DNA of 63,932 bases, filler included, from Licmophora abbreviata (GCA_900291995.1; 22 parts of 22 records of this genome joined end to end with filler, not necessarily neighbours in it); one strand, 5' to 3'; shown: positions 11,339 through 44,904, counted from the first letter of the whole stretch. The notes: generated by a model from the sequence alone, not told the origin. Numbers and translations are program-made.

Positions 11339-12519
11339 AATCGTTAGGCGTTATAGACGCGACTGCACCTTCGGTCGCACGGTCCCGAAGTGTCGTGTAT
11401 ATCGTTATCGGCGTCATACTGGTTTTCCTGCTCTGGAGTTATTATGCGCCGCTCAATGCTGTTGTTCGGGGCACTGGCCGGGTCGAACCGCGCGATGCCA
11501 CGCAAAGCATCCAGAATCTCGAGGGTGGCATTGTCCAGTCTATCCTTGTTCGCGAAGGCGACATGGTGACTGCAGGCCAGCTTTTGGCGCAGATGGACGA
11601 CACTGCTTACAGAAGCGCCTATGATGAACTGCTGGGTCGAGAAGCGCTGCTCGAAATGCAGATCCTGCGCCTTCAGGCAGAAGCCAATCCTGAACAGTCC
11701 GCTACCCTTACCATCCCCGAACGCCTTGCTGAACGCGCGCCTCAGGCGGCCCGAACAGAGCAGAGTCTGTTCATTGCCCGGATGGATCAATATCGCGAAA
11801 CGCTTGATGCCTTGTCTCGGATCAAGGCGTCGCGCGATGCCGAGCTGGTTTTGCTCAAGCCCCTTGTCGAACGGGGAGCCATTCCTGAAACCGACCTCAT
11901 ACGGGTGCAGCAATCTGTTCTGATGGTCGCGCAGGAAATAACCGAGCATCGAACAGGCGTTGAAGCAGCGCGGATGCAGGCGCTTTCCGAGCAGCAGGCT
12001 GAACTGGCCCAGATCCGTCAGCAGTTGCGCGTCCGGGCCGCCCAGGTGGAGCGGGCCGAACTGCGTGCGCCCATGGATGGGATCGTCAATCGCGTTGTGG
12101 TCCGTACAGCCGGCGGCGTGATCGCCCCGGGTGGTCCGATCCTCGAAATCATTCCGCTCGACGATGCGTTGGTGGTTGCGGGTCGGATCAAACCGCAGGA
12201 TATCGGACCGGTATTTGTCGGCATGCGGGCAAGCGTCAAATTGACGGCATTTGATTATCGAGACTATGGCAGCCTGGCCGGCGCAGTGGTTCATCTGAGC
12301 GCAGACACGGTGACCGATCCGGAAACCAATGATCCCGAACCCTATTACGAAATCGTGGTCGAACTGGACAGTCAGACCCTGACCGGCCCCAAGGGCGAGG
12401 TCTTCATCCGCCCGGGCATGCAGGCCACAGTCGAGTTGGACGCAGGGCAAAATACCGTCTTCCACTATCTGTTCAATCCGATCCTGCGCGCGAGCGAGGC
12501 GTTTTCCGAACCTGACTGA
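11335..12519 (+). CDS. HlyD-family T1SS membrane fusion protein
   Basis: N-terminal TM, IQNLEGGIV, LRAPMDGIV, IRPGMQATV, YLFNPI. Confidence 0.92.
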   Translation: MKSLGVIDATAPSVARSRSVVYIVIGVILVFLLWSYYAPLNAVVRGTGRVEPRDATQSIQNLEGGIVQSILVREGDMVTAGQLLAQMDDTAYRSAYDELLGREALLEMQILRLQAEANPEQSATLTIPERLAERAPQAARTEQSLFIARMDQYRETLDALSRIKASRDAELVLLKPLVERGAIPETDLIRVQQSVLMVAQEITEHRTGVEAARMQALSEQQAELAQIRQQLRVRAAQVERAELRAPMDGIVNRVVVRTAGGVIAPGGPILEIIPLDDALVVAGRIKPQDIGPVFVGMRASVKLTAFDYRDYGSLAGAVVHLSADTVTDPETNDPEPYYEIVVELDSQTLTGPKGEVFIRPGMQATVELDAGQNTVFHYLFNPILRASEAFSEPD

Positions 12520-12734
12520 ACTTGGTATGGGTTTTGGGGGCTTCCCGTCGAACAGGGCGCGGCGTCAGTGGCCGGTTCGTCGAATACTCAACTTTTTTGC
12601 ACAATGCGTGTTCACAGGCTTTGGCAGGCGCCTGCTTGAGGTCCTGCTACCTGCATGGTCGTGATTTGGAATTGTGGTGATACGGATCCATCACCTTGGC
12701 GTGCCGCGCAAGACCGACAGAGCCCTTAATTGAT

Positions 12735-12808
12735 TGGAGGCGAGTACCGGAATCGAACCGGTGTACACGGATTTGCAATCCGCTGCGTCACCACTCCGCC
12801 AACTCGCC
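12735..12808 (-). tRNA. tRNA-Cys (GCA)
   Basis: Reverse complement GGCGAGTTGGCGGAGTGG...GCGGA-TTGCAAA-TCCGT...GGTTCGATTCC...CTCGCCTCCA; 74 nt, encoded CCA. Confidence 0.96.
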
Positions 12809-12951
12809 ATCCAAGTGGTTGGGATCGGTTATCCGATCATTGCTCTTTGTGCAAGACCTGCCGAACAACTTGGCCAGCAGCAATTGCGTTGCCGGCTATC
12901 AGCGTATATGCGAAAAGCAGGTCGTCATTTCATAGCACAAGAGCCCGGTCG

Positions 12952-13605
12952 ATGACAGATTACGCAGCCCGCCGCACCGTCATGGTCGATACACAAGTCC
13001 GACCATCCGACGTGACGAAGTTTCCCATCATCGACGCCATGCTGGACGTGCCGCGCGAGGCCTTCGTGCCGCGCCACCTGCGCGAGGCTGCCTATATGGG
13101 TGAAAACATCGATCTGGGCGGCGGTCGGGTGATCCTGGAACCGCGCACCTTGTCCAAGCTTTTGGATTCTCTCGATATCCGGTCCAGTGAGCTGGTTCTG
13201 GATGTGGGCAGCGCCCTTGGATATTCCGCAGCTGTCATTGCCCGGATGGCCGAAGCGGTTGTCGCTGTCGAGGAAGACCGTGACATGGCAAATGAAGCGC
13301 AGGGTCTCTTGTCCGAACACGGCGCCGACAACGTTATCGTTCATCATGGGCCTCTGGCAGAAGGGGCGCCGGAGCATGGTCCCTATGATGTCATGGTCGT
13401 TGAGGGCGGGGTTGGTGATCTTCCGCAGACCCTGATCGAGCAGGTCAAGCAGGGTGGGCGCATTGCATGTCTGTTCATGGAGGGCGCTTTGGGTGCGGTG
13501 CGCATCGGGTACAAGGTTGATGGGGACATATCATGGCGCTATGCCTTCAACGCCGGTGCTCCTGTTCTGCCCGGGTTCGAACGGTACAAGGTTTTTACGT
13601 TTTGA
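12952..13605 (+). CDS. pcm: Protein-L-isoaspartate O-methyltransferase
   Basis: MVDTQVRPSDVT, VPREAFVP, SAM motif VLDVGSALGYSAA; pcm-tolC synteny. Confidence 0.9.
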   Translation: MTDYAARRTVMVDTQVRPSDVTKFPIIDAMLDVPREAFVPRHLREAAYMGENIDLGGGRVILEPRTLSKLLDSLDIRSSELVLDVGSALGYSAAVIARMAEAVVAVEEDRDMANEAQGLLSEHGADNVIVHHGPLAEGAPEHGPYDVMVVEGGVGDLPQTLIEQVKQGGRIACLFMEGALGAVRIGYKVDGDISWRYAFNAGAPVLPGFERYKVFTF

Positions 13606-13624
13606 TCCTTGCCAAAGTCGGGGC

Positions 13625-15052
13625 ATGAAGTTGGAGAGCAAATTGAAAAGAATTTTGACAAGACGTTTTCTTGGTCCCGTGCTCGCAGCGGCACTGGCAG
13701 GTACAGCGCCTGTTGCGGCAAACGCGGAAAACCTGGCCGACACGTTGGCGGATGCCTACCGCAACAGTGGTCTACTGGAGCAGAACCGCGCTCTGCTGAG
13801 AGCCGCTGACGAAGATGTCGCTGTCACCGTGTCACGTCTGCGACCGATCCTGAACTGGTCTGCGAATGTCACCCGCAACTTTGGCCGCAACCGCACCGGG
13901 AACGGCAGCACGTCGATCGATTCTACGGATGCCGGCATCGGTGTGACGGCACAGCTTCTGCTGTATGATTTCGGACGCACCGGCCTGCAGGTCGACGCGG
14001 CCAAGGAAACCGTTTTGTCCACGCGCGAGACACTGCGCAGCATTGAGCAACAGGTTCTTTTGCGCGCTGTCGTGGCCTTCATGAATGTGCGCCGGAACAG
14101 CGAATTCGTCTCGCTGCGCCAGAATAACCTGCGACTGCTGGAAGAAGAACTTCGCGCGGCGCAGGACCGTTTCGAGGTGGGTGAGGTGACCCGTACCGAT
14201 GTGGCACAGGCCGAGGCGCGGCTGGCGTCGGCGCAAAGCGGACTGGCTTCGGCGCAGGGCAATCTGGCCCGTGCGATCGAGGAATTCACAAGTGCGGTCG
14301 GGCGCCAGCCGGGCCCGCTTCGGACGCCGCAATCGCTTCCGAGCCTCGCAGGTGGCGTCGATGCGTCCAAAACGGTGGCACTGCGGAATCATCCGGATAT
14401 TCTCAAGGCGCAGCATGATGTTGCCGCGGCGGAACTGGCCATCAAGGCAGCCGATGCCGCAACCCGCCCGCGGGTAAACCTGAACGCGCGGGCCGGAGTC
14501 GAGGATGAATGGAGCGGTGGCGATTATGTCCGTTCCGGCAGTATTGGCGTCGAGATCACAGGCCCGATTTATCAAGGCGGTCAGCTGAGCGCCCTTGAGC
14601 GGCAGGCCGTCGCGCGCCGCGACGCGGTGCGCGGTGGGTTGCTTCTGGCGCAACTGGCCGTTCAACAGGATGTCGGTAATGCCTATGCCGATCTGCGCGC
14701 CGCCCGGGCCAGCCGCGAAGCCAGCCAGGAAGCCGTTCGCGCGGCAACCGTGGCCTTCCGCGGTGTCCGGGAAGAGGCACAGCTGGGCGCGCGGACCACA
14801 TTGGACGTTCTTGATGCCGAACAGGCGCTTCTGGACGCGCGCACGAATCTGATATCGGCGGAAATCGATGTCTATATCGCGGCTTATGCGATCTTGTCGT
14901 CGATCGGGCAGTTGACGGCAAGGGATCTCAATCTTGCGGTGCAGACCTATGATCCGGCGGCCTATTACAACCTGGTCAAGACGGCTCCGACTGAGCTCAG
15001 CCGGCAGGGCCGTCAGCTTGATCGGGTTCTGCGATCCTTGGGGAAAGAGTAA
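13625..15052 (+). CDS. tolC: Core TolC-family outer membrane protein
   Basis: Signal peptide, RFEVGEVTRTDVAQAEARL, GARTTLDVLDAEQ. Confidence 0.9.
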   Translation: MKLESKLKRILTRRFLGPVLAAALAGTAPVAANAENLADTLADAYRNSGLLEQNRALLRAADEDVAVTVSRLRPILNWSANVTRNFGRNRTGNGSTSIDSTDAGIGVTAQLLLYDFGRTGLQVDAAKETVLSTRETLRSIEQQVLLRAVVAFMNVRRNSEFVSLRQNNLRLLEEELRAAQDRFEVGEVTRTDVAQAEARLASAQSGLASAQGNLARAIEEFTSAVGRQPGPLRTPQSLPSLAGGVDASKTVALRNHPDILKAQHDVAAAELAIKAADAATRPRVNLNARAGVEDEWSGGDYVRSGSIGVEITGPIYQGGQLSALERQAVARRDAVRGGLLLAQLAVQQDVGNAYADLRAARASREASQEAVRAATVAFRGVREEAQLGARTTLDVLDAEQALLDARTNLISAEIDVYIAAYAILSSIGQLTARDLNLAVQTYDPAAYYNLVKTAPTELSRQGRQLDRVLRSLGKE

Positions 15053-31075: not shown

Positions 31076-31795
31076 AGCGTTTCGCGAAAAACCTGTCTCA
31101 CGGATGTTCGCGGAATGCAGTGTTCTGTTCANNNNNNNNNNNNNNNNNNNNNNNNNNNNNNNNNNNNNNNNNNNNTTAATTAATTAANNNNNNNNNNNNN
31201 NNNNNNNNNNNNNNNNNNNNNNNNNNNNNNNCTTGCAACGACCATCGGCATTGAGACCCCGCACAGAGGCGCGACAGAGACCCTGTAGGATGACATGGGC
31301 CGATTCCCCTTGCTTGGTTGCTCTGAGTTGCCAATGGCTGAGGCAAGACACCTGCTCAAATTCCGATACTTGCTCGTGCGCGCACACAGGGGTTTTTCAC
31401 GGCAGGTTAGGAATGCACGGCCTTGGGCTTTCGTATCGGCGAGCAATTACATTCACTGATGTATCATGACGTGATGGCAGAGCAGGAGGGCGGGAACGCA
31501 TCAGACGCCATGAAAAATGTTGCAGATCATTTCATGAACAGATGAGATCAGAGGCTCTCTGTTCAAGCAATACCTTGCCTCATGCCGAGCGTGGCGGCCT
31601 GCTTCATGTATGCCAAGCACCGAAGTCTTCGATAGGCTTACCGGTTTTTGGCTCGAGAAAACATGTACATTTTTGATACATAATTTCCAGAATTGAGCGC
31701 TCAATTTCCGTGTGACAACTAAGCTCATGCGTAATCCGGAATTTCTTCATCGCATGGGGAAATCCGACATAGAAGCCTCAAGGAGCGTTATCAAC

Positions 31796-34644
31796 ATGGC
31801 TAAAGACTTTGCGGAACTCAACCGCTTGGAAAACGAGGCTGGTATTCAGGCACCTGAAGCCGGCACGAAAGAACAACTTGTCAACAAATTCGTTAAGGCA
31901 TGGGAAAACGAAACAGCACGGCGTGCTGTGAAAGGCGGTACTGGCCTTTCCATGGCACTGACACTGGCTGCCTGTGGCTCGGATAGCGGTGGTGGATTTG
32001 CTTTTGCACCGTCCACTCAGGGCCCGGCTCCGACTGGTGAGACGATTGCTCTGACGCCAGGCATTGATAACCTGGACGGTACGGCTGGAGATGACGTCTT
32101 TGATGCGTCTCCTATCCTGAATGACGCGCTGGCTTTGGTTGATACTCTCGGTGCTCTGGACGTAATCAACGGTGGCGACGGAACAGATACACTGAACGTG
32201 GTAGATACGAATAATTTCGTGGCTCCTGCCGGCGTTGACCTCAATTCAATTGAAATTGTGAATGTAAACGCTGCGGGCACAGTAACGTTTGACCTGTCAA
32301 CAGAGACAGACGTTCAGCAAATGAATGTCACAGGTATTGGTGGGCTTAATCTCGACGCTGGTGCTGCAACTGCAGTAGCGGCAACTTCCACTAACGTTGG
32401 TGGTGCAGCTGTACTGATAGATGGCGGAAGCACTGTCGACGTCACGGCTGCAGGTATCAACAACGGGACAATTACGGTCGGCGCGAATTCCGCTGCAAGC
32501 GGTGATGTTGTGGTGAATGCTACGGGCACATCAGGTACGTCTGCAATTGGCGCGATCAGCGTGACTGGCGGCGATACTGTGACCATCAATCAAACAGCGA
32601 GTAACGTCGTCAACACTACTACGACGCTTGGTGCTGTTACCGTAAATGGCGACGCGGCCACTACCGCAGTCACTGTGAATAATGCTTCTTCGGCAACCGT
32701 TTCAGCAACTGTTGCTGGGGTGACTGGAAATACTATTGTCATCGAAGATAACGACACCAACGCGGGAGTTGGTAACGATACTGACGCAGATACGATTACA
32801 TCTGTGACAATTTCGAATTTCACAGATGCAGATATCATTTCTTCGGCTCTGACAACGCTAAATGTTACCGGTGGCGGTGACGATGCGCCGGTGTCTGGTG
32901 GTATTGAGCTTATCGCAGATAGCTCGGTTTCGCCAGCAACTACGCTTGCCTTGAACAGCGCAGGCGGTGCAATGGGAGCCATCTTTGGCACGCAGGCAAA
33001 CGCCTATACAACGATCAATGTTGCTTCGTCGGCCGATACGACCATCGCAAACCTCACGGCTACTGCTCTTGAGACAATAAACTTCACCGGAGNNNNNNNN
33101 NNNNNNNNNNNNNNNNNNNNNNNNNNNNNNNNNNNNTTAATTAATTAANNNNNNNNNNNNNNNNNNNNNNNNNNNNNNNNNNNNNNNNNNNNGGAGCGGG
33201 CGATACAACACTGACGGTGAGTACTCTTGGTGGTGCGACAACTACTGATATCAACGTAACGGGTTCTGGCGGTGTTACATTGGGTTCCGTATTGGCAGAC
33301 GGCACGGACTTCGACGGCAATTCCGGTGATGATAGCATCATTGTTGGTAATACTACACAAGGCATCACGATGGGTGCTGGTAACGACACAGTGCAAGTTG
33401 ACGTCGCTGCGTTCGGTGCTGCCACTGCTTCTGTCGATGCCGGGACAGGTGCAGAGGATACTCTTGTAATGTCCGCTGCGAACGCCGTTACCGCATCTGC
33501 CACCGCAACTTTTGAGGCCGATATTTCGGGCTTTGAGATCCTCACGATTAACACGGCGTTTGCCGGTGGGGCGAATGCGACAGTTGACCTAGCGAATCTT
33601 GACGAAATAAACGCTGTTAACTTTGCCGGGGCAGCTGCAGGAGCAGGTGCGGCGTACACGTTTGATAATTTTGCCAATAATGGTACGCTGACGTACACTG
33701 GGACCATGGTGGAGGCAGCAGACGTTGTGAATGCCAATGTGGCAGGCGCTGCAATTGGGAGCCAGACGTTCAATGTTGGTATTGAGTCGGCTGCTGCGGT
33801 AAACACCGGAGCTCTGACAGTTGCCGATGTCGAGACGATTGTGATCGATGCTCCCGACGCTACGGCTACTGGGGGTGCTGCTGTTCGTCATACGGTTGAC
33901 TTGGATGCGGCTGCGGCAACATCACTGACTGTTTCGGGCAATAACGGTTTCATCATTGACACGGCTGGTAGCACTGCAATTACATCGTTTGACGCTTCGG
34001 GTGTCGTTGGTAACGGTGACGCTGATACAGCTGCGAATCTAGCTGTCACTTTCGCTTCGGGAAACACGACGGCGACTGCAGAAGTTTCAATCACCGGTGG
34101 TGAAGGCGATGACAACCTCACGGGTAACGCCTCTATTGACACTATTAGTGGTGGCGCTGGTGACGATACCATTAATGGTGGTGATAACTCTGACGTGCTT
34201 ACTGGTGGTGCTGGTGCTGACACGTTTGTGTTTGGTCCTGGCAGCTCTGGCGGTAATCCCACTGTTGCTGGAAACTTTGACGAGATCACCGACTTCAACA
34301 CTGGTGGAAGTGATGTAATTAGCTTGGGACTGGGACCTAATCTTACCATTGACGCTTCCTCTAACTCGGCTCCAATTGGAACTGCTGCAATCTCGAATGA
34401 GGGCATCGCTACCTTCAATGCGGCTGATAATCTCCTGTCTGAGCAAGTTATCGCCGTAGAAGATGCACTTGGTGGCGACATTGCCGGTGAATTTGCAGTC
34501 TTTGAGAACGAAAATGGAAACAGCTACGTTTTCGTAAGTGACAATGTTGCGGGCGTTGGTGCAGGTGACGTTCTCATTCAGCTTACCAGTGTAACAGGTC
34601 TTAGCGATACAACTCTGACTGGTGGTGACTTGACAATTGCATAA
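31796..34644 (+). CDS. RsaA-like S-layer / RTX surface protein with N-terminal lipobox leader, gap at 33093-33192
   Basis: AGGAG RBS at 31781; LTLAAC60; T/A/G/N/V-rich beta-helix repeats resembling Caulobacter RsaA; RTX nonapeptides GGEGDDNLT, GGAGDDTIN, GGDNSDVLT, GGAGADTFV near C-terminus. Confidence 0.8.
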
Positions 34645-34651
34645 GCCAATA

Positions 34652-34677
34652 AGGCCCCGCCGTTCGCGGCGGGGCCT
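34652..34677 (+). terminator. Perfect 11-bp stem hairpin with UUCG loop after S-layer gene
   Basis: AGGCCCCGCCG-TTCG-CGGCGGGGCCT; no U-tract. Confidence 0.7.
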
Positions 34678-34848
34678 CCCTGTCCCTCAAGCAGCGCCAA
34701 AAATTTCAAATCGCTCTTTGGCTCTGCGGCTTAACGAGTATCGCTGAAAATACGCTCCTTATGGTTACAGCGAAGAAGATCCTCAGGGCCTCCTGGGGGT
34801 CTTCTTTTGAACATGGTGCAACTGGATAAAAACTAGGAGAACCACAAC

Positions 34849-35091
34849 ATGGCGAATGCTGACCTCCCGGCTCCCAAAATCTCGATTGATGGTGCTGAGT
34901 ATGAGCTGAGTTCGTTGACTGAACAGGCACGAGCTCAGATGCAGAATATTCGCTTTTGCGAAGAACGTATCCGACAGCTGGAAAGTGAATGGGCCATCGC
35001 TGATACTGCTCGTCTGGCCTACAGCCAAGCCCTGATGTCTGAGTTGAACGCCAAAAAGGCCGTGTTGCATGATCAAGACATTGAAGATTGA
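34849..35091 (+). CDS. Small coiled-coil protein, paralogue 1 (DUF6447-like, by recall)
   Basis: AGGAG RBS; IDGAEYELSSLTEQARAQMQNIRF...TARLAYSQAL. Confidence 0.75.
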   Translation: MANADLPAPKISIDGAEYELSSLTEQARAQMQNIRFCEERIRQLESEWAIADTARLAYSQALMSELNAKKAVLHDQDIED

Positions 35092-35296
35092 TGATCAAGA
35101 ATATGATGTTTCGACGCTGAGCGAAACAGGTCGAGAAAACTTGGCGCAGTTCCAGCACGTGACGGCGCAGCTGCAAGAAGCTCAAAACTTTCATGCCGTT
35201 CTCAATAAAGCGCGTCACGCTTATATCGCCGACCTCAAAAACGAAATCGTCAAAGGTAAGAGCGGCGTTGATCTCAGCGCCCTGTTCGATGACTGA
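35069..35296 (+). CDS. Small coiled-coil protein, paralogue 2 (DUF6447-like)
   Basis: IDDQEYDVSTLSETGRENLAQFQH...KARHAYIADLK; overlaps paralogue 1. Confidence 0.72.
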   Translation: MIKTLKIDDQEYDVSTLSETGRENLAQFQHVTAQLQEAQNFHAVLNKARHAYIADLKNEIVKGKSGVDLSALFDD

Positions 35297-35314
35297 ACCG
35301 AAAAGGGAAACACG

Positions 35315-35521
35315 ATGCCAAAGATCACTGTAGACGGTACTGAATACAATACCGAAGACCTCACCGACAACGGCAAGGCACAATTGGCAAGCCTGCAGTT
35401 TCTGGAACAGCAGATGGCCAAGCTGAAAAGCGAGATTGCTGTCTATCAGACGGCCCGAAACGCATATGCACAGGCACTGAAGGCCGAGCTGGAAAAGGCG
35501 AGCCAGGGCGAGAATGCCTGA
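35315..35521 (+). CDS. Small coiled-coil protein, paralogue 3 (DUF6447-like)
   Basis: VDGTEYNTEDLTDNGKAQLASLQF...TARNAYAQALK. Confidence 0.78.
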   Translation: MPKITVDGTEYNTEDLTDNGKAQLASLQFLEQQMAKLKSEIAVYQTARNAYAQALKAELEKASQGENA

Positions 35522-35565
35522 TTGAGAATTCCCAGATTTGCAAATCAAACGGGTCAATCAAGGCT

Positions 35566-35682
35566 ATGGCAGAAAAAGCAGCAGTTATCGTAGCACTGAT
35601 CCTGATCTGCAGCATTGGCTTGGTGGTTGCTGAGCCACTCTTCATGCTTGGTGACCCCGTGGAATGGGATGAGATAAACTGA
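35566..35682 (+). CDS. 38-aa single-pass membrane microprotein (absent from ORF track)
   Basis: MAEKAAVIVALILICSIGLVVAEPLFMLGDPVEWDEIN*; stop overlaps next start (TGATG). Confidence 0.55.
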   Translation: MAEKAAVIVALILICSIGLVVAEPLFMLGDPVEWDEIN

Positions 35683-36086
35683 TGTGCTGGCTTGGCCAAA
35701 TCTTGCGATTCCTGCTTCTGCTGTCGTCACGTGTGGTGCTGATCGGTGGCGTGATATGTGGCGCAGCAGCAGCGTGGGGTTATTACGGCTATCAGCGCAT
35801 CGGCTGTCATCCCATGTTCTCGTCGGCCAACATCGAATGCGGTACTGTGCAGGTCATGTCAGCTGAGCATTCCCTGGCCATGGTGCGTATGTTCGCGCCT
35901 TACCAACAGCAGCTCAGAGACAATCAAACCGAGCTGATGCTGTATGCCGGTGCAGTAATCATATGGGCGATTTTGATTGAATTGGTGTTTGGCGCCTTCG
36001 CGATCATGCGTCGACGCAGGCACAAACGCGATCTTTTCAAAGGCGCTACGCATATCAAAGCCGAAGAAAGCACTGAGCCGCTATGA
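35682..36086 (+). CDS. Two-TM hypothetical membrane protein
   Basis: Two hydrophobic segments, loop with Cys pair, RRRRHKR after TM2; ATGA overlap with lspA homologue. Confidence 0.65.
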   Translation: MCWLGQILRFLLLLSSRVVLIGGVICGAAAAWGYYGYQRIGCHPMFSSANIECGTVQVMSAEHSLAMVRMFAPYQQQLRDNQTELMLYAGAVIIWAILIELVFGAFAIMRRRRHKRDLFKGATHIKAEESTEPL

Positions 36087-36556
36087 GCAGTGAGAAAGAC
36101 CCGATCCCGGTTTTTGTCTTAACCGTAGCCACGATTTTCATATTTCTGCTGTGCCAGATCATCACCTGGTACCTGACTGCACATGCGGATTTGCCGATAC
36201 AGGTCTTTTCCACGACTTTGTTGGAACTCAATCTCGTGCATTCGGAAAATCGCGGCGTGAACTTTGGATTGATGGCCGGCGACGACCGCAGCAATCAATT
36301 CATCTTGGCCGGTATCGCCATTGTGGTCGGTGTCGTGATGGCCACGATCCTGCTTGGGAAGCGGCGTTTGTCGCATGCAGTTGCTGGTGGCATGATTCTC
36401 GGCGGTGCGATGTCCAACGTGATGGATCGACTGACGTTTGGATATGTGTTCGACTACATCAATACCCCGTTTCTGGGCATGACCAACCCGTTCAGCTACA
36501 ACATAGCCGACATCTTTATAGTGCTGCCCATCATTTGGTGGGTGTTCAAGTCATGA
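36083..36556 (+). CDS. lspA: Lipoprotein signal peptidase II homologue (island-encoded)
   Basis: NRGVNFG, GGAMSNVMDRLTFGYVFDY, YNIADIFI; both catalytic Asp positions present; four TM segments. Confidence 0.85.
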   Translation: MSSEKDPIPVFVLTVATIFIFLLCQIITWYLTAHADLPIQVFSTTLLELNLVHSENRGVNFGLMAGDDRSNQFILAGIAIVVGVVMATILLGKRRLSHAVAGGMILGGAMSNVMDRLTFGYVFDYINTPFLGMTNPFSYNIADIFIVLPIIWWVFKS

Positions 36557-36788
36557 GAACACAGACCGCATGATCAGTATTTGATCCCGCATCACTATAC
36601 TGGCAGGCTCTTTGCGTCAAAAAAACTGGCCTGCTGAACCGTTCGTCAAAATAACCGCGAAATCCCCGCACACAGCACGTCAATGACGTTGGCCACTACA
36701 TGACATGCTGAGCGGCATGGTCCAGGCATAGCATGGTGCCGACAGCGTGTGTTTGACGCTGAACACATCCCGAAGCTCACGGCCCCAA

Positions 36789-37193
36789 TCAAGTTGAGGT
36801 ATTTGAGCGCACCGCTGACGGGATGGGTGTAACGGGCACAGTGACGCTTGATCCGATCCAATTGAGGTGTTCCTCAAGCTCGTCTCGGAGTTGATCGCTC
36901 AGTTTGAGCGTCTTGCGACTTTTCTTGGTGGAGTTCACCACAACCAGGGAGCCTTCAGCGATCCGGTCCCGGATAAAGTTTTGCATTGTGAGATTTGTAC
37001 GCCTGTTCGATCTTACACGAGCAACGTAGTCTCCAATCCCGTAATCGGGATCGCCGTCACACGTATAAATCACAAGAAGCAGTTCCCAATACTCGACAAC
37101 GTGGGTGTATTTATACAGGAACGTGGTTTTTTTCCTGCTCGCTAGGCGCTGCAGTTCGCGTCTCGCCATGATTTTTGTGAAACACTTTCCCAT
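36789..37193 (-). CDS. Hypothetical protein, possible winged-helix DNA-binding
   Basis: 134-aa ORF; helix TMQNFIRDRIAEG then wing-like LVVVNSTKKSRKTLKLS. Confidence 0.5.
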   Translation of the reverse strand: MGKCFTKIMARRELQRLASRKKTTFLYKYTHVVEYWELLLVIYTCDGDPDYGIGDYVARVRSNRRTNLTMQNFIRDRIAEGSLVVVNSTKKSRKTLKLSDQLRDELEEHLNWIGSSVTVPVTPIPSAVRSNTST

Positions 37194-37427
37194 ATATGTT
37201 TAATACCAAAAATGGGACTAAGTCTCCAAGTTCTCATTCACATAATTTACCTATAATTTTCATATAAATCAGGGACTTCCAGCTTAGTGGTGTAAATCGA
37301 AAGTGAATTTTTCTACTCCATAAAAATATTAATTTGAGTAATTGGATACTCGTTTCACGATGTTAGTAGAAATTAATCTCGGTGTATGATCTCGAGTCTC
37401 ATATGGCACTGCATTGTCACGATAGTT

Positions 37428-37474
37428 TGCAGTGCTCCCCAACCTTGGACCGCCGGAAGCTGGGTTTTTCCGGG
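37428..37474 (+). repeat. 47-bp inverted repeat, left copy (IS3-family-like end)
   Basis: TGCAGTGCTCCCCAACCTTGGACCGCCGGAAGCTGGGTTTTTCCGGG, exact reverse complement of 43856-43902. Confidence 0.93.
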
Positions 37475-37531
37475 TCTTTCACGATGACGGGCTGGTGACG
37501 CCATCGGCATAATGCATTTTTTCGGCGCGTT

Positions 37532-37878
37532 GAGCCAGGTCACGTCTTTCGCCTGGACGGACCGGTTGCGCCGGACCGGCATGGGCATCTTGATGGTGCG
37601 AAGGGCGCTTGCTCGACAATATCCTCATCGTGCGGCTGTGACGGAGGCTAAAATACGGATGCGTCTACCTGCATGCTTGGGAACCCGGCTCAGAGGCAAA
37701 GGCAGGCATCCGAAAATGGATGACCGTCGACAATCGCCAACGCCCACACTCAGCCCTCGGCGGCAGGCCACCCATCTTGGACTTCTGGCTGAGAAGTGAA
37801 ACAACTAGCCTTGGTCAGCTGTTGCAGAGAGTAGCGTAATTTACGCTAGATCCTGTCCAGCCGATGGGGAGTGGCTTA
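37532..37878 (+). pseudogene. Degenerate IS3-family transposase 3' fragment with its right end
   Basis: SQVTSFAWTDRLRR, then after frameshifts/stop LKYGCVYLHAWEPGSEAKAGIRKW...RPHSALGGRPP...QRVA*; followed by CTGTCC...TGGGGAGTGGCTTA end. Confidence 0.85.
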
Positions 37879-38001
37879 TCTCCTTGATGCTGCGGGAAAT
37901 ATAACCTTTCTGGACAGTTTATTATGCTGTTCAACAGCGCCGTATTTACAAATGAAACAATTTGATCCATATTTTGAGACGAGATTACTTGGGAACGTTT
38001 G

Positions 38002-38357
38002 ATGGCCTATGACGCTCTAATCACCCTTCGTCACCTGCGCTGCGCCATGAAACACGTCGCAAATCAAATGGGTTTATCGGATTTAAATGAAGCTGAGTTG
38101 GATGCTTTGTCTGCCATAGGGGATCTTGCTGAAAAAGCGCTGACGTTCCAAGCTTGTCAAGTTGCTGAGCACGAGAGCATGTGCGGAGTGTCGCGCACTT
38201 CAAAATATCGAGCAGTAAAGTCCCTGGAGGATAGGGGTGTCATTGCACGTGTTTGCCTAAACGGGAAACGTGTGCTGACTTTGAATCCAGACTTTTTCGC
38301 TCCTACTTCCCGCAACTGGGATGCAGATAAATCAATGAGCCCAGACAAAACGCTTTC
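38002..38357 (+). CDS. MarR-like winged-helix regulator, runs into gap
   Basis: GLSDLNEAELDAL...VSRTSKYRAVKSLEDRGVI. Confidence 0.6.
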
Positions 38358-38758
38358 NNNNNNNNNNNNNNNNNNNNNNNNNNNNNNNNNNNNNNNNNNN
38401 NTTAATTAATTAANNNNNNNNNNNNNNNNNNNNNNNNNNNNNNNNNNNNNNNNNNNNGATGCGGGCTTGAGCAGTGATTTTCCAGGCTGACGGCGCTGAG
38501 CCGTTTCAGGCCTCCAACACTTGGCTCAGTATCTGGGCAACCAATGGAGCAGGATCATTGGAGGCATCATATAGGCCGGGTTCGTGTCTGCGTCAGGCGC
38601 TTGGGTTTTGTGTCTTCTCATGCTCGATGGTGGCGCGGAGCGCCATCACACAAACCGCCCGACTTGCCCGTTGGTCTTGTCTTGGCGCGGTCGCTGATCG
38701 GCAGTCGCGCGTTGACGGGGCATGGCGGAACCTTTCTCTTCCGAGCGGAGTTCATTGC

Positions 38759-40111
38759 ATGGACCACCGTCATTATGTGCTTTTGTTGGGGGTATTTGTT
38801 CTCTCGGCATGTGCGAAAACGTCGCCTCAGCTGGACCATCTGGATGATGAGATCGTGGTCCGGTTGGCTGCCGGTGACATGCTGGCCCAACAGGCGGAAA
38901 CGCTGGATACGCGTGTCGATGTAAGCAAGGGATTCAAGGCCGCGCTGCTGGAGGCTCTTGAGGAAAATCCCGGGTACCGGGCAGCCGTCAAGCTGGAGGA
39001 AGAGGCCGCGGCATCGATCGATGTTGCCGCAAGCGGTCAGCGTCCACAGATCACGAGTGACTCCACGCTTGGAGCAATCTATGAGGGCGATCCCGTCTCG
39101 GACACGACAGCGGGCATTGCGGGCGGGCTGACCCTGTCGCAGTTGCTCTATGATGGTGGTGCCACTCTCGGCTCGATCAATCGCGCGACGGCAGACGCGG
39201 TTGCCGCGCGTGCCGAGCGTTTGGATCGAGGAAATGCAATTGTTCTTGAGTCGGCTCGCGCCTGGGTTGATGTCTGGCAATATCATCAGCGTTTGGTTTG
39301 GCTAACCACCAAGACGTCTGAAATGGATGGGGTTGTCTCACAGATCGAGCGGATGGCATCGAATGGCATGCTCGATCGGGCATCGCTGGATAGCGCGAAG
39401 CGTCAAATCGTAGACATCGCACTTGAACGCGCGACATTGGAAAGCCAACTCGGTGATGCAAAGTCACGATTTGAGCGATACTTCGGCGGGACGCCCGGAT
39501 CTGTAGAAAATCCAGCAAAGATCATGACTGGCCAGGCGGCGCGTCTTAGGGCAACGGATTGGAAGACAGCGCCGCGTCTACGACGCAGTGCGGCAGAACT
39601 TGTGTCGGCGCAAGGTGCGCTGGCAGAGGCTGAAGCCGCATTCAAACCCCGCGTGAGTTTGCAGACGGGCGTCATGTCGCCAATGAACAGCGATGATACA
39701 ACGGATGTGACCGCTGGCTTTCGAGTCGAATATACCTTTGGTGACGGTGGCCGCCGAAAAGCTCGGCTCGAGGCAGCCAGAGCCCGCGTGGATGCGCTTG
39801 AGGCCAAGCTTGCGGATGACCAACGTGATGCAGAATCTCAAATGGGGGCCGCGCTCGATCGTTTGACGTCGATTGAACGGTCGATGCCTCTCTTGAAGCA
39901 GAAGATCGCCTTGAGCGCCTCGGAGGCCAAAACGGCACGGTCGCAGATCGCTACGGGTCAATCCAACTTACGAAACTTGGTGGAAGCGGAGGTAGAGAAT
40001 TACCGGGCTCGTGACCAGGAGATACGCATGCAAGCGGAACTCCGTCTTTTGTTGCTGGAAATTGCTGCACGCTCAGGGATGCTTACAAAACTCATTGGGG
40101 CCTCGGATTGA
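38759..40111 (+). CDS. TolC-family outer membrane protein of island T1SS (lipoprotein)
   Basis: Lipobox VLSAC, QLLYDGG, FKPRVSL; upstream of ABC and HlyD genes. Confidence 0.87.
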   Translation: MDHRHYVLLLGVFVLSACAKTSPQLDHLDDEIVVRLAAGDMLAQQAETLDTRVDVSKGFKAALLEALEENPGYRAAVKLEEEAAASIDVAASGQRPQITSDSTLGAIYEGDPVSDTTAGIAGGLTLSQLLYDGGATLGSINRATADAVAARAERLDRGNAIVLESARAWVDVWQYHQRLVWLTTKTSEMDGVVSQIERMASNGMLDRASLDSAKRQIVDIALERATLESQLGDAKSRFERYFGGTPGSVENPAKIMTGQAARLRATDWKTAPRLRRSAAELVSAQGALAEAEAAFKPRVSLQTGVMSPMNSDDTTDVTAGFRVEYTFGDGGRRKARLEAARARVDALEAKLADDQRDAESQMGAALDRLTSIERSMPLLKQKIALSASEAKTARSQIATGQSNLRNLVEAEVENYRARDQEIRMQAELRLLLLEIAARSGMLTKLIGASD

Positions 40112-40164
40112 GGCGGCCCACCTTTTGTTGAGTGCGCGTGAACCTAACAGGAGGTGGAAAGACC

Positions 40165-42505
40165 TTGTCCTCAAAGACCATTGAAATTCTGCGTGGTGAC
40201 GCCGAAGGCACACGAGCAGAAGGCACGGAAGTTAAGGACGTTGAGAGCTGTCCGATAGATTCCAAGGCCGAGCACGAGATATCCGGAGAAATCCCACAGG
40301 AGTTGCGCGGCCACCTGCAGCAAGGCGAGCTACTTGTTCTGTGTGTGCAGCACATCTTGTCTCATTCGGGAATGGCATTTTCCGAAGGCGCGGTGCGTGA
40401 TTTGCCCGAATTGACAAGTGAAGTCTTTGATCCGCAGGCGGCAGTGTCCGCACTGATGCATGTTGGTTTCGACGCAAATTTCGGTGAAATGCCTGTTCAA
40501 AAGTTGCGCGAGGGACACTTGCCCGCGATCGGCTTTACCAAGGCGGGCGAGCCGTTGGTGATCCGCAGTGTTGCATCTTCCGGCAAAGCTGAGCTTTGGG
40601 ACCCGCAAACCTCAGAAGTCCATTCTGTGGCGACAAAGGAACTGACGAACCAGCTGATACCCTATTTTGTCTTGGCGCGTCCGCGGCACAAGGCAACAAT
40701 AAAACGCGTCAAGAACGATTGGTTCTGGGGGTCGTTCGCACAAAGCAAATGGCTGTACCTGCAAGTCATAGCCGCGGCAGGATTGACCAACTTCCTGGGG
40801 CTGTCGACGTCTCTCTTCATCATGGTCGTCTATGACAGGGTGGTGCCGAACGAGGCAATGGAATCTCTGATTGCTTTGACAATCGGTGTGCTCCTGGCCT
40901 TGAGTTTCGATTTTATCATCAAGACATTGCGTGCGCAGTTTGTCGACCGGGCCGGCAAGCGCGCCGATCTGAGAATGTCGCGGTTGATATTCGATAAGAT
41001 CCTGAACATGCGGCTTGATCGACAGCGGCGCAAGGCTGGTGCGTTGGCCAGCATCGTCAGAGAATTCGACACGTTGCGCGAGTTTTTTACCTCTGCAACT
41101 CTGGTCGCGATCGTCGATCTGCCGTTCATCTTCTTCTTTATTTGGGTCATTTCCCTTATTGCAGGGCCTTTGGCACTGGTGCCGCTTATTGCCGTGCCGT
41201 TGGTGATTTTGAGTGGCTTGGTGATACAGCCGTTTCTGGCACGGATCTCTGAAGGATCCCTCGAAAGCAATATGTCCAAGCAGGCTGTACTGGTTGAAAC
41301 GCTGAATGGGTTGGAAACTGTTCAAGCCACAGGGTCTGGCAGATTGATGCGCAAACGCTTCGAAGAGGCGGCCAGTGCGCAATCCGATCTTGGCCTGAAA
41401 AACCGCATGTTGTCGCAGTTTGCCATAAACGCGGCCGCGTCCATTCAGCAGCTCGCGCAAGTCGCAACAATCTTCTACGGCGTGTTTCTTATCCAAGACG
41501 GTACGATCACGATGGGGGCCTTGATCGCTGCAGTGATCCTGGGCGGTAGAACTCTTGCTCCACTATCACAATTGGCGTCTGCAATGTCTCGTGCCAATGG
41601 CGCACGCCAGGCGTTCCGGTCTTTGTCTGACGTCATGCAAGAAGATGAGGGTGACTTGGCGGCAGACCAGCCGCGTTTGAGCCGACCACATCTCAGTGGA
41701 GACGTCGAATTCAAAAATGTCTCTTACACGTTCCCTGGTGCGAAAGAACCTGTCATTCGGAATTTGTCGCTGAAAATTCCTGCCGGACAGAAAGTTGCGA
41801 TTCTGGGCAAGATGGGATCTGGCAAATCTACTTTGGCGCGGTTGATCTCAGGGTTAGCAGAGCCGTCTGAAGGAGCTGTCATGCTTGATGGTGTGGATTT
41901 ACGCCAGATTGACAGATCTGACGTCCGGCGAAACCTTGGGGTGATGCTTCAGGAAACATGGCTGTTTTCAGGATCCGTCAAGGAAAATCTCCAGATGGGT
42001 TTCTTCGAGTATGATGATGCGCACCTTTTGAAGATTGCTGAAGTGTCCGGGGTCGACGATTTTGTGGCGAGGCACCCACAAGGCTATGACATGCAACTCA
42101 AGGAGCGCGGTGAGGGGTTATCCGGNNNNNNNNNNNNNNNNNNNNNNNNNNNNNNNNNNNNNNNNNNNNTTAATTAATTAANNNNNNNNNNNNNNNNNNN
42201 NNNNNNNNNNNNNNNNNNNNNNNNNCGGTGAGGGGTTATCCGGGGGGCAGCGTCAATCCATCAATCTTGCGCGGGCGCTTTTGCATGATCCCAATTTGCT
42301 TGTGCTGGATGAACCTACCAGTTCGATGGATACAGGCACTGAAAAAGCCGTTCTCGAACGCCTGAAAGCTTGGTCGGCCGATCGCACGCTGGTGATGATC
42401 ACTCATCGCAACAGTCTTTTGGAGCTGGCGGACCGGGTTCTGGTTCTCGACAAGGGGATCGTGCTTGCAGACACGACACCCGAAAAGATCAAAGCGGGGC
42501 GGTAG
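40165..42505 (+). CDS. T1SS ABC transporter, gap at 42126-42225 (flanks overlap by 18 bp)
   Basis: GGAGG RBS before TTG; WFWG, VYDRVVPN, GKMGSGKS, LSGGQRQ, VLDEPTS. Confidence 0.9.
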
Positions 42506-42512
42506 GAGAACA

Positions 42513-43817
42513 ATGTCGGATATTGATTTCAAGACTTTGTCACGAGATATGGCAGGCCACGAAGGAGTCAGTGGCTCAGCTATTTTGGTGACTATCGCAG
42601 CGCTGATTTCAGTACTCTTGTTCTGGGCATCTTACGCCGAGCTTGACAATGTGACGAGAGGCGAAGGCCGTATCGTGTCATCGGTTCAGAACCAGATGAT
42701 TCAGGCGGCCGAGGGTGGTGTGATCTTGCGACGGTATGTGTCTGAAAACACACATGTTGTGACAGATCAGGTTCTCTTTGAACTTGATCCCATAGATGCC
42801 AGCAGCGAATTAAATCGAACGGCCAAGCGCATGGCAGCTCTCAACATTAAGGAAGCCCGTCTCCGCGCCGAAATTAGTGGGGCCCCCTTTGTTCTAGAGG
42901 CTGCATTGCGTAGTCAGGCCCCAACAGTCGCTTTGACAGAGGAAAGCCTGTTTGCTGCACGTAAGGCCGAGCTAGCAGGCACGATTTCTGTGCTTGAACA
43001 GCGCAAGCAGCAGCGCATGCAAGATTTTCAGGCGGCCGAAGCAGGTGCGTTGACCGCACAACGGACCATGGCACTCTTGGAGGAAGAAATTCAGGTTGTT
43101 GAGCCACTGGTTAGAGACAACATTGCTCCGGCGACACGTCTACTGGAATTGCAGCGCCAGTTTGAACAAGCGCGAGGGGATCGCGATCGCTCACGCGTCT
43201 CGATGGATCAGGCAAAATCTGGGATCCAAGAACTAGAGAATGAAATAGAGAACGCGCGAGAAGCTTACACGCTTACGGCGATGGAGGAGTTGAATGGCGC
43301 GGTGGCAGAAAAATCAGAATTGCAGGAAGCACTGCCGCGACTAGAGGAGCGGGTCAGTCGGACCGTGATCAGAGCCCCCATGGCCGGTATTATCAACCGT
43401 TTAAATTTCCGTACTCCAGGCGGCTACGTGAATACGGGTGACGTGGTGCTTGAACTCGTTCCGACCGGGGAGGCGCTTGTTATCGAGGCTAAGATTGCGC
43501 CTAAGGATATTTCAAATATTCGCCCCGAAGACGCAGTACGGATACGATTTTCAGCGTACGATTCTGCAAAATATGGCTCCGTGGATGGGCGCGTCCTAAG
43601 GATCAGCCCCGATGCAATCGTCGATCAACAAAACGAAGGCCTCAGTCATTATTTGATTGATGTTGCCATCGAGGGAAAGCTGAATGTGGATGGAGAGCCA
43701 GTAACATTTATGCCAGGTATGACCGCCACTGTGGATGTCCTTTCGGGCAAGCGGACGGTCCTTGAGTATATCTGGCAACCCGTTGCCAAGGTTCAGGAGC
43801 TTGCGTTGCGCGACTAA
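42513..43817 (+). CDS. HlyD-family T1SS membrane fusion protein
   Basis: IQAAEGGVI, IRAPMAGII, PGMTATVDV, LEYIWQP. Confidence 0.92.
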   Translation: MSDIDFKTLSRDMAGHEGVSGSAILVTIAALISVLLFWASYAELDNVTRGEGRIVSSVQNQMIQAAEGGVILRRYVSENTHVVTDQVLFELDPIDASSELNRTAKRMAALNIKEARLRAEISGAPFVLEAALRSQAPTVALTEESLFAARKAELAGTISVLEQRKQQRMQDFQAAEAGALTAQRTMALLEEEIQVVEPLVRDNIAPATRLLELQRQFEQARGDRDRSRVSMDQAKSGIQELENEIENAREAYTLTAMEELNGAVAEKSELQEALPRLEERVSRTVIRAPMAGIINRLNFRTPGGYVNTGDVVLELVPTGEALVIEAKIAPKDISNIRPEDAVRIRFSAYDSAKYGSVDGRVLRISPDAIVDQQNEGLSHYLIDVAIEGKLNVDGEPVTFMPGMTATVDVLSGKRTVLEYIWQPVAKVQELALRD

Positions 43818-43855
43818 TGCCAGGATTGTTGAGCTTCCGACCAACTTGCTCTGCC

Positions 43856-43902
43856 CCCGGAAAAACCCAGCTTCCGGCGGTCCAAGGTTGGGGAGCACTG
43901 CA
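43856..43902 (-). repeat. 47-bp inverted repeat, right copy
   Basis: CCCGGAAAAACCCAGCTTCCGGCGGTCCAAGGTTGGGGAGCACTGCA. Confidence 0.93.
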
Positions 43903-43944
43903 GAAGCAGGAAAACTCTCGCCAACGGTGGTAGAAGGTTCGGGG

Positions 43945-44757
43945 TCAGACCAGTGGGCGCACACGTGCGAAAAGAGACTTTTCGTCGTCCTGCAAAATAT
44001 CTTCACGGGCCAACCCTGCAGCTTCTGCCAACCGCATCCCGGTGTCTGATACTAGAGCAACAAGCCAACGCAGATCGTCATCGACTTCTTGGCTTCGTGC
44101 TTGAACCGAGGCTATAGCTTCCTGTACGAAAGGCGTCCGTTCTGAGACGCCTGCGTTTCGGTCATAGTAAACACCAGTAAAGGGGTTGTTGAGGGTGAGG
44201 CCCTGTTCGCTCGCAGCAAAATTGATCACTTCTCTGACGGTGCCAAAGACCCAAGTAATGCTGCTGCCTGAGAGGCCACGAGCAATCAACGCATCGCGAA
44301 AGGCGTTGGCATCTGCTCTTGTGTACGCCTCTAGATGCTTATCGCCACAGGTATCAATGACGTATCCACAAGACCTCTCGGCCGCTCTGTGAAAAGTAAT
44401 TGAGCGCCCTTTGCCTTTTAGGCCCAAGTAGACACTGACGGCCTCTGACAACAATACAGATGAGAAAGACACGTCTGGCGCTTGGATATTCGGCTGAGCG
44501 GGGATGCTCCCCTGTTGGCGAAGCATATGCTTTCCCGGCATTTGAACGTCTTGGCACCTCAAATGATACCAGTACTCGTCGAGCTGGTCGGCAACCTTTC
44601 TAGCTCGAGCCTCTGCAATTTTTGGCGACTTTGTGCGCAGCGAAAACGCAATCCGAGGTGATGTGTAATGGGATTTCAGCTCGTTAGGAACTCGACGGCT
44701 GAAGTAGAAGATCCCTTCTTTGACGAAGGTGAATGGGCGCGAAATGGTCTCCGACAT
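43945..44757 (-). pseudogene. Truncated tyrosine recombinase/integrase (DUF6538-type N-terminus)
   Basis: [16 protein letters not shown], catalytic TGMRLAEA; stops shortly after, with no HxxR or catalytic Tyr region. Confidence 0.82.
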
Positions 44758-44818
44758 GGTCTACGGCTCCTAGCAGTTGTTAAAAGCTGGAGCAAAACCA
44801 ATGAGTTAGATAATGAGG

Positions 44819-44904
44819 TGGTGCCCGCGGCCGGACTCGAACCGGCACGGCCTTGCGGCCTGGAGATTTTAAGTCTCCTGTGTCTACCATTCCACCACGC
44901 GGGC
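44819..44904 (-). tRNA. tRNA-Leu (TAA)
   Basis: Reverse complement GCCCGCGTGGTGGAATGGTAGACAC-AGGAGA-CTTAAAA-TCTCC, long variable arm, GGTTCGAGTCC, CCA; 86 nt. Confidence 0.96.

Follow-up and report, generated by a model that had tools for sequence, protein, structure and literature searches.

Two textbook rules separate the routes by which bacterial proteins reach the cell surface: substrates of type I secretion systems (T1SS) lack a signal at their N-terminus, and lipoproteins depend on Sec (or Tat) and on Lol. The S-layer protein RsaA of Caulobacter crescentus leaves the cell through a T1SS whose exporter, RsaD, is of the PrtD type, and its first ~225 residues are presumably the part that binds the O-antigen of lipopolysaccharide (LPS). 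In the Aat system of enteroaggregative Escherichia coli a T1SS-like machine is combined with an N-terminal lipid, which dispersin receives via AatD; the substrate is small and exported by Sec, and the lipid is placed on an N-terminal Gly by an Lnt homologue. A second signal peptidase II gene inside a specialised gene cluster is found in Myxococcus xanthus and Listeria, where it serves antibiotic self-resistance or general processing. Here we describe a stretch of 63,932 nt (the window) recorded under Licmophora abbreviata (GCA_900291995.1), part of which is a genomic island whose host is a marine Roseobacter-group bacterium. The island carries an RsaA-type S-layer gene (the substrate) that begins with a lipoprotein-type leader, T1SS genes, several small genes and an extra signal peptidase II gene, lspA2. 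Comparative sequence evidence links T1SS substrates with an invariant lipobox, and the arrangement suggests that secreted proteins are attached to the cell surface in a way not described before.

The window is made of 22 separate contigs of 1.0-6.2 kb each, with artificial linkers (44 N, TTAATTAATTAA, 44 N) between them. An earlier reading of the same DNA (the original prediction) took these linkers for assembly gaps and proposed a hybrid T1SS/lipoprotein route, with export of the surface protein by T1SS and release of its lipidated Cys by a dedicated LspA. Every gene in its inventory was found, all of them co-oriented.

The S-layer protein and its lipobox leader

The two pieces of the S-layer gene are one gene of 914 amino acids. 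The contig ends at 33092/33193 overlap by 4 nt, and a contig of the X14 run that extends 3842 nt beyond 33193 bridges the join. An orthologue of metagenomic origin (P0028, 914 amino acids) is continuous across this point, with 62% identity between the 5′ piece and its residues 1-433 and 71% identity between the 3′ piece and its residues 433-914. Coverage of RsaA is also continuous: residues 58-432 of the substrate align with RsaA (5N8P) 226-594 (E 1.5e-30) and residues 2-448 of the 3′ piece align with RsaA 593-989 (E 2e-26). When P0028 was compared with the solved RsaA chains, it matched RsaA 248-1025 with an E-value of 9e-63. The 3′ piece also contains a HemolysinCabind match (E 1.5e-14). At the other end of the gene, the start ATG has an AAGGAG 11 nt upstream, and a start with MAKDF is common to the relatives.

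Both window pieces and P0028 are thus homologous to the C-terminal part of RsaA that forms the lattice, which confirms the earlier RTX/RsaA-like call. As judged by these alignments, the substrate is a true RsaA homologue that has the Ca-binding, lattice-forming body and the C-terminal end of the Caulobacter protein, and it may form a two-dimensional lattice on cells. A match to the N-terminal LPS-binding domain (RsaA 1-~225) was not found. Since the alignments start at RsaA 226 or 248, the LPS-binding part of RsaA has no counterpart in the substrate; upstream of the RsaA-like body there are only a leader of 60 residues and a linker of ~20 residues.

The leader consists of an acidic/zwitterionic N-terminal extension, a conserved basic amphipathic stretch (KFVKAWENETARRAVK), 13 uncharged residues, preceded by the basic residues RRAVK, and a lipobox LAA-C60. 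Its sequence runs MAKDF...KFVKAWENETARRAVK-GGTGLSMALTLAA-C60, followed by the linker. The Cys60 codon, taken straight from the sequence, occupies positions 31973-31975, and the leader ends in LTLAA-C. Comparison of the first 140 residues with 1.84 billion representative proteins gave 178 matches at E≤1e-3, and we examined 159 proteins, that is, the best 150 of the 178 matches plus 9 more from a second search. An invariant WE ... Cys was present in 106 of the 159, and in 105 of them the Cys follows the WE at a distance of 23-24 residues. All 106 have the lipobox L-[AST]-A-C (LAAC in 101, LSAC in 3 and LTAC in 2), so that the conservation of Cys60 among homologues, which the original prediction had named as a check, holds for the whole family as well as for all six genome copies described below. 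The two residues after the Cys are GG or GS in 100/106, a second Cys is missing in 94/106, and the lipoprotein core pattern (PROSITE PS51257) fits 105/106, with an uncharged stretch of 13-16 residues before the Cys. The leader of the window likewise agrees with the lipobox L-[AS]-[GA]-C of bacterial lipoproteins, which follows basic residues and an uncharged stretch.

The passenger regions behind the leader vary widely, although at least two GGxGxD motifs are present in 54 of the 80 leader proteins that have 500 residues or more. The named sources are few (Roseobacter sp. AzwK-3b, Roseovarius sp. and Planktomarina temperata), and JGI gives two of the members the label 'S-layer protein'. The leader gave no match in Pfam or NCBIfam, and its sequence defines a family outside both collections. 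By the same features, the substrate would carry a diacylglyceryl-Cys and be cleaved behind the leader. A Tat signal was considered and rejected: the RR pair is limited to the MAKDF subgroup and is not found family-wide.

The other 53 of the 159 proteins match only the first repeat region and have no leader. By eye, many of these ~50 leaderless proteins (P0089, P0105, P0106 and others, as well as positions 10315-14103 of locus L063 in genome G336) start in a DUF4214-like manner, YxGYFxRAPDxxGLxYW. The presence of this start on similar bodies suggests that the lipobox leader, DUF4214 and the RsaA N-domain are interchangeable N-terminal anchors of T1SS-exported proteins.

Type I secretion genes and the genomic island

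The 70-residue leader was searched against 401 genomes of the bacterial family, one per genus. Six genomes carry it, and the WE...LAAC box is present in all six. In four of them (G198, G126, G367 and G301) the leader gene adjoins genes for an outer-membrane factor (OMF), an ATP-binding cassette (ABC) exporter and an HlyD adaptor, together with one to three small DUF6447-like genes, and the ABC proteins of these four genomes are 55-61% identical to that of the window. In another carrier (G037) the module of OMF, ABC, HlyD and small genes lies on a different contig from the leader gene. A further genome (G066) has a T1SS-adjacent RTX protein with a different leader that also ends in ALAAC. Synteny with an orthologous T1SS in several genera therefore upholds the proposed linkage of the lipobox substrate to T1SS genes. 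As a separate observation, in locus L057 (G375:C3, 14074-16406) a transposase-like open reading frame (ORF) lies directly against the 5′ side of an RTX ORF that is next to T1SS genes and lacks its N-terminus, which looks like a substrate gene disrupted by an insertion sequence.

Among the T1SS genes of the window (Table 1), the OMF has a short classical lipobox of its own, VLSA-C18 (signal MDHRHYVLLLGVFVLSA-C18, 38759-38815), and so has its G198 counterpart; against TIGR01844 it scored 105.5 bits (cut-off 225.15). TIGR03375 is by far the best model for the ABC exporter, whose split pieces have to be read against a whole-protein cut-off of 693.1 bits. The N-domain of this exporter gave a Peptidase_C39 match of 18.9 bits (cut-off 22). 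A double-glycine leader processed by an active C39 peptidase was rejected, because the C39 match is below its cut-off and the aligned Cys is, by eye, not kept in the G198 and G031 orthologues.

The ABC gene is also split by a linker. The contig ends at 42125/42226 overlap by 18 nt, and the TIGR03375 profile continues over the join, from position 605 on one side to position 601 on the other. The caveat of the original prediction that the substrate gene and the T1SS operon are linked across gaps is hence removed for the substrate halves and answered for the ABC gene, and it stands where the cassette contig meets the T1SS contig (38357/38458), since the contig ends do not overlap there. Both sides of that join lie inside one insertion relative to the nearest genome, G001. 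The X14 run contains 0.98 of the sampled words of the cassette; the contigs concerned, 8106 and 6955 nt long, pass both of its ends. One X14 contig reaches 6293 nt beyond 38357; if the contigs of the window abut, it would end inside the tRNA-Leu gene, which is arithmetic and not evidence.

A dispersed short repeat is located at ~37428-37725, and several X14 contigs break there. The summed X14 contig depth rises in this interval from ~7.5 to 94-144 (bin means), with single positions up to ~300. Two partial copies, 86% and 95% identical, are present elsewhere in G001, and an Rfam search with the repeat matched no family.

G001 is colinear with window positions 23098-52933 at 92-98% identity, and in it the positions equivalent to 31131 and 44819 are separated by only 117 bp. 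The segment 31232-44818 is therefore an insertion, and in G001 the substrate gene and lspA2 are both missing; its single lspA is an ordinary one that lies elsewhere. GC content per contig is 51-57% in the island and 59-68% in the flanks. The integrase ORF at the tRNA end, as seen by eye, ends soon after the first conserved Arg box (~270 amino acids), directly against the end of hlyD; this truncation implies that the island may have lost the ability to excise. A far-side att repeat of the tRNA end longer than 12 nt was not found.

Table 1. Features of the island and its insertion site, in window coordinates
Feature	Position	Strand	Support or remark
Genomic island, at least 13.3 kb, four contigs	31232..44818		at tRNA-Leu 3′ end
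Extended lipoprotein-type leader, 60 aa, lipobox LAA-C60	31796..31975	+	
S-layer gene, 5′ part, residues 1-432, runs off contig end	31796..33092	+	
S-layer gene, 3′ part, residues 433-914, RTX nonapeptide repeats and T1SS-type C-terminal end	33193..34644	+	
sm1, small cytoplasmic coiled-coil protein, DUF6447-like, 80 aa	34849..35091	+	
sm2, paralogue, 75 aa	35069..35296	+	phrog_21153 E 6.9e-5
sm3, most conserved paralogue, 68 aa	35315..35521	+	phrog_21153 E 3.5e-8
Single-pass membrane peptide, 38 aa	35566..35682	+	stop overlaps next start
mem1, membrane protein, 134 aa, two hydrophobic stretches (by eye)	35682..36086	+	
lspA2, divergent signal peptidase II paralogue, 157 aa	36083..36556	+	PF01252 78.4 bits, cut-off 25
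orfm, 134 aa, no known family	36789..37193	-	
Winged-helix ORF (MarR/TrmB-like), weak, runs off contig end	37999..38357	+	every match below cut-off
Outer-membrane factor, TolC/NodT-like	38759..40111	+	PF02321 E 2.5e-37
T1SS ABC exporter, LssB type, 5′ part, degenerate C39-like N-domain	40132..42125	+	TIGR03375 635.7 bits, positions 3-605
T1SS ABC exporter, 3′ part	42226..42505	+	TIGR03375 130.6 bits, positions 601-688
HlyD-family periplasmic adaptor	42513..43817	+	TIGR01843 319.4 bits, cut-off 208.65
Integrase remnant, DUF6538 N-domain	43945..44757	-	PF20172 E 5.7e-19; XerC only E 1.9e-4
tRNA-Leu(taa), insertion site	44819..44904	-	

The extra signal peptidase II and the small genes

LspA2 is 34% identical to the LspA of G001 and scores 66.1 bits against the NCBIfam equivalog TIGR00077, below the cut-off of 73.95. 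A search for relatives returned 27 sequences at 53-100% identity, three of them in AzwK-3b. In a neighbour-joining tree, built without support values, 18 lspA2 sequences form a long-branch clade of their own. All 18 keep N56, G58, N112, R116, V122, D124, N140, A142 and D143, in one-to-one correspondence with Pseudomonas aeruginosa LspA; D124 and D143, which we take to be the catalytic pair, are kept in the window protein as well. The Asp and Lys of the first transmembrane segment (TM1; D23 and K27 in P. aeruginosa), which presumably lie near the inhibitor and substrate binding site, are present in 0/18 lspA2 sequences, compared with 28/28 housekeeping copies whose N-terminus was captured. The window protein has Cys and Thr at these two positions.

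Four metagenome contigs carry an lspA2 that is 78-94% identical to that of the window, and all four show the same cassette order: three small genes, the 38-residue peptide, mem1, lspA2 and, on the opposite strand, orfm. The one contig long enough to show it has a leader protein ahead of the cassette. Five further pairs of lspA2 and leader protein come from contigs of the same size (80375, 93538, 13664, 8972 and 5137), which is suggestive only. Stop and start codons overlap from the 38-residue peptide through lspA2, mem1 being coupled translationally to lspA2 by an ATGA overlap. In three of these contigs the peptide is 100% (L053), 95% (L052) and 71% (L055) identical to that of the window, and mem1, 75-91% conserved, adjoins lspA2. 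No family was matched by mem1 in Pfam, NCBIfam or PHROG, and its Atlas scores were at most 0.88. From these data, lspA2 is a distinct, rare clade confined to the cassette, and its fixed place there, together with the altered TM1, suggests that it is specialised.

The product of orfm may be a regulator, an assignment made by eye only; the gene is found again in the T1SS modules of two genomes (G198 and G301), and in the cassettes it follows lspA2. At position 36834, inside orfm, the X14 contig is one base shorter than the window, so that orfm is frameshifted in one of the two assemblies.

The three small genes were regarded by the original prediction as part of the leader system, a tie that was not sustained. 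Their products match DUF6447 (PF20045) weakly (17.9, 19.9 and 22.2 bits; cut-off 27), and the Atlas clusters nearest sm3 are named DUF6447 (score 0.95). A profile of the small proteins detected relatives in 11 of the 401 genomes, 10 of which have ABC and HlyD homologues within the stretch examined. In three of these ten T1SS-linked loci the T1SS or the substrate is of another kind: a protein with a DUF4214-type N-terminus (G336), a giant RTX protein (G337) and a PrtD-like exporter (G244). The small genes are thus associated with T1SS in general and are not leader-specific, which weakens the idea of DUF6447-like proteins as leader-specific chaperones. In the structural model, sm3 consists of a beta-hairpin and one 50-residue helix (pLDDT 91.4), and a Foldseek search gave no PDB match (best E-value 4.7).

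Two side observations concern this family. The Atlas DUF6447 clusters nearest sm3 are recorded mostly from viruses (55-100% of the members that have a record), and phrog_21153, matched by sm2 and sm3, is a family of unknown function; the small T1SS-associated family therefore also occurs in phages. In G198 a fourth DUF6447-like gene (C1:2802346-2802531; 12872-13069 of locus L047) lies ~9 kb from the main module, beside further RTX-repeat ORFs, and may mark a second substrate cassette.

Proposed export route, alternatives and known systems

The co-occurrence of a T1SS-type C-terminus and an invariant lipobox beside T1SS genes, in a family of more than 100 proteins, challenges both textbook rules. 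Given the loss of the LPS-binding domain of RsaA, anchoring of the layer is an obvious job for the lipobox. The reading that we prefer, with about an even chance of being right as a full mechanism, is that the island carries a cassette which encodes an RsaA-type surface layer held by a lipid anchor. The ABC/HlyD/OMF system would thread the substrate C-terminus first, so the leader would arrive last, its basic amphipathic n-region remaining on the cytoplasmic side and its short hydrophobic stretch leaving the transporter sideways into the inner membrane. Cys60 would then be diacylated by Lgt and signal peptidase II would cut before it, a step carried out by LspA2 and the two small membrane partners in the island lineage and by the housekeeping LspA elsewhere. 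Finally, the acylated N-terminus would trail the chain out and insert in the outer leaflet of the outer membrane, leaving the lattice tethered by the ~20-residue linker. We infer the lateral release, the Lgt step, the cleavage and the passage of the acylated end. HlyA passes its T1SS carrying acyl chains, which makes the last of these steps less far-fetched.

More doubtful than this scheme is its extension to a general route of marine Rhodobacterales, in which T1SS would deliver surface lipoproteins without Sec or Lol through a sideways hand-over of the leader to the lipoprotein-modifying enzymes, an end placed in the outer leaflet and an LspA2 that, with its altered TM1 and its two small membrane partners, is specialised for the T1SS-engaged substrate. 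The carriers of the leader in such a route would be S-layer and other repeat proteins, of which more than 100 were found.

Several points weigh against the lipid-anchored cassette. A leader of the signal peptidase II type normally means export by Sec, and we know of no T1SS substrate that is a client of Lgt and Lsp; the sideways exit and a triacylated end moving through the channel are both speculative. The Cys of lipoproteins usually lies ~15-35 residues from the start, and in the leader family it lies at 28-118 (median 54; 60 in the window). One leader-bearing genome (G202) has a 69%-identical leader and no small genes, and its best ABC match, 37% identical, is ~1 Mb away. That the cassette contig adjoins the T1SS contig is unproven. 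Being so similar to the window, the lspA2 contexts are not independent. At E≤1e-30, lspA2 was found in none of the 401 family genomes and in none of 147 genomes of the genus, and the Pfam model, applied to five of the six genomes with the leader, detected only ordinary lspA copies, far from the locus. A scan of the genome collection with LspA2 returned 29 loci, all ordinary lspA at 26-45% identity with no cassette genes nearby and so uninformative for context, and the plasmid collection gave no match at E≤1e-20. Since all six other leader-bearing genomes do without lspA2, the leader family does not require it: lspA2 and its two small membrane partners are an accessory of one lineage. The original hybrid reading is accordingly kept for RsaA homology, the invariant lipobox and T1SS synteny, and given up for a dedicated LspA as a general part; likewise, the co-occurrence that it expected across genomes was seen for leader, T1SS and small genes in four of six and for lspA2 in none.

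That absence favours a view which is compatible with lipid anchoring and which we consider unlikely, namely that lspA2 is a spare peptidase of the island, not tied to the substrate, which may serve the OMF, add capacity or confer resistance of the globomycin/myxovirescin type, as for the extra lspA genes of Myxococcus. The island OMF, itself apparently a lipoprotein with a classical lipobox, could be its client, and the altered TM1 residues would presumably lie near the inhibitor/substrate site. On the other side, the place of lspA2 is always directly behind the substrate, the small genes and the two membrane genes, and stop and start codons overlap there; no OMF was seen in the 10.8 kb of L055; and AzwK-3b has three lspA2 copies together with at least three leader proteins.

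Somewhat less probable still is that the substrate is an ordinary Sec/Lgt/Lsp/Lol lipoprotein, with the T1SS exporting other cargo or performing only the outer-membrane step, as in Aat with dispersin. The lipoprotein pattern of 105/106 leader proteins would be explained in this way, as would the leader protein of G202, which has no orthologous T1SS nearby, and the L055 cassette, where the 6.3 kb upstream are free of T1SS genes. Yet the substrate retains the RsaA C-terminal end and RTX repeats, T1SS synteny is found in four of six genomes, and the ABC exporter is of the HlyB/LssB type with a C39-like domain, a type that presumably loads from the cytoplasm. Moreover, RTX proteins fold with Ca2+, so that a lattice protein of this kind would be expected to meet Ca2+ and fold in the periplasm, which makes a periplasmic passage unlikely.

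We assign a similarly low probability to the leader being a retention and release device, which would keep the N-terminus in the inner membrane or the channel in the manner of LapA, LspA2 cutting like LapG to shed the layer. Mere retention needs no invariant lipobox, and the Cys60-to-body linker of ~20 residues would be too short to span an OMF channel. The ABC exporter is of the LssB type, whose NCBIfam model is named for the Legionella system, and lspA2 is lineage-specific, as a release regulator might be. For Legionella RtxA, surface retention and a release by LapD/LapG are reported (PMC11264772). However, no LapG- or LapD-like gene and no match to the retention module was present among the Pfam and NCBIfam matches of the scanned island ORFs, where Lap families were absent altogether.

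Finally, an assembly or binning artefact that brought together contigs from different organisms or places is very improbable: the window does consist of 22 linker-joined contigs of 1-6 kb, the ends at 38357/38458 do not overlap and the repeat at ~37428-37725 breaks other assemblies, but two of the three joins are backed, the same gene set occurs in complete or long contigs of other genomes, and X14 holds nearly the whole cassette in contigs extending past both ends.

If a lipid-anchored layer is confirmed, it would be a third mode of anchoring Gram-negative S-layers, besides LPS binding and outer-membrane protein partners, and a natural parallel to the lipid-anchored S-layer of archaea. Surface display would profit from a short leader able to direct the cargo of a T1SS to covalent anchoring on the cell, and studies of LspA inhibitors have an interest in a signal peptidase II clade whose substrate pocket is changed. 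Culturable roseobacters, AzwK-3b among them, allow a direct test of the claim. Full-text searches, with subscription journals and supplements outside their coverage, returned nothing on a lipobox T1SS substrate, on DUF6447 or on a lipid-anchored Gram-negative S-layer.

Among described S-layers, that of the methanotroph Methylotuvimicrobium alcaliphilum 20Z may offer a relative of the leader family. According to PMC11784148, MEALZ_0971 is RsaA-like, is encoded beside all three T1SS genes, has a predicted N-terminal membrane segment at 86-95 and a small co-expressed protein, and is no longer secreted with a C-terminal tag; neither a lipobox nor a lipoprotein is mentioned in the paper. The leader-family member P0072 has its Cys at 95, and a search from P0072 returned no named methanotroph. 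Lipid anchoring, if true, may account for the so far unexplained membrane segment at the N-terminus of MEALZ_0971. The S-layer glycoprotein of Haloferax volcanii is held by a lipid after cleavage of a terminal signal, through PGF-CTERM and the archaeosortase ArtA (references 30-31 in PMC11784148). The likeness lies in an S-layer on a covalent lipid, presumed here, after a terminal signal has been cut by a dedicated membrane peptidase; the Haloferax system differs in being archaeal, with a C-terminal signal, unrelated enzymes and no T1SS.

With Myxococcus and Listeria the island shares an extra lspA, from which lspA2 differs as a clade tied to a T1SS substrate cassette and with a clade-wide change in TM1. 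Compared with Aat, the candidate lipid site is a classical lipobox Cys, and no Lnt/CN-hydrolase (AatD-like) match was obtained in the 14 island ORFs scanned; the contrast with Aat and with LapA/LapG drawn in the original prediction agrees with this content, which includes no AatD-like, LapG or LapD gene. Both the LapA/LapBCE system with LapG/LapD and Legionella RtxA/LssBD resemble the island in a big repeat protein, an LssB-type T1SS and an N-terminal hold on the cell, which is presumed for the island, whereas the island has a lipoprotein-like N-terminus in place of the retention module, and its candidate processor is an aspartyl signal peptidase II instead of a periplasmic cysteine protease. 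The closest counterpart is RsaA (PDB 5N8P, 5N97, 6P5T and 6Z7P), which is like the substrate in its body, RTX repeats, T1SS-type C-terminus and nearby T1SS. Relative to the RsaA system, the island has an LssB-type exporter with a C39-like domain, DUF6447-like genes and lspA2 in addition, and a protein that carries a lipobox leader in place of the first ~225 residues of RsaA.

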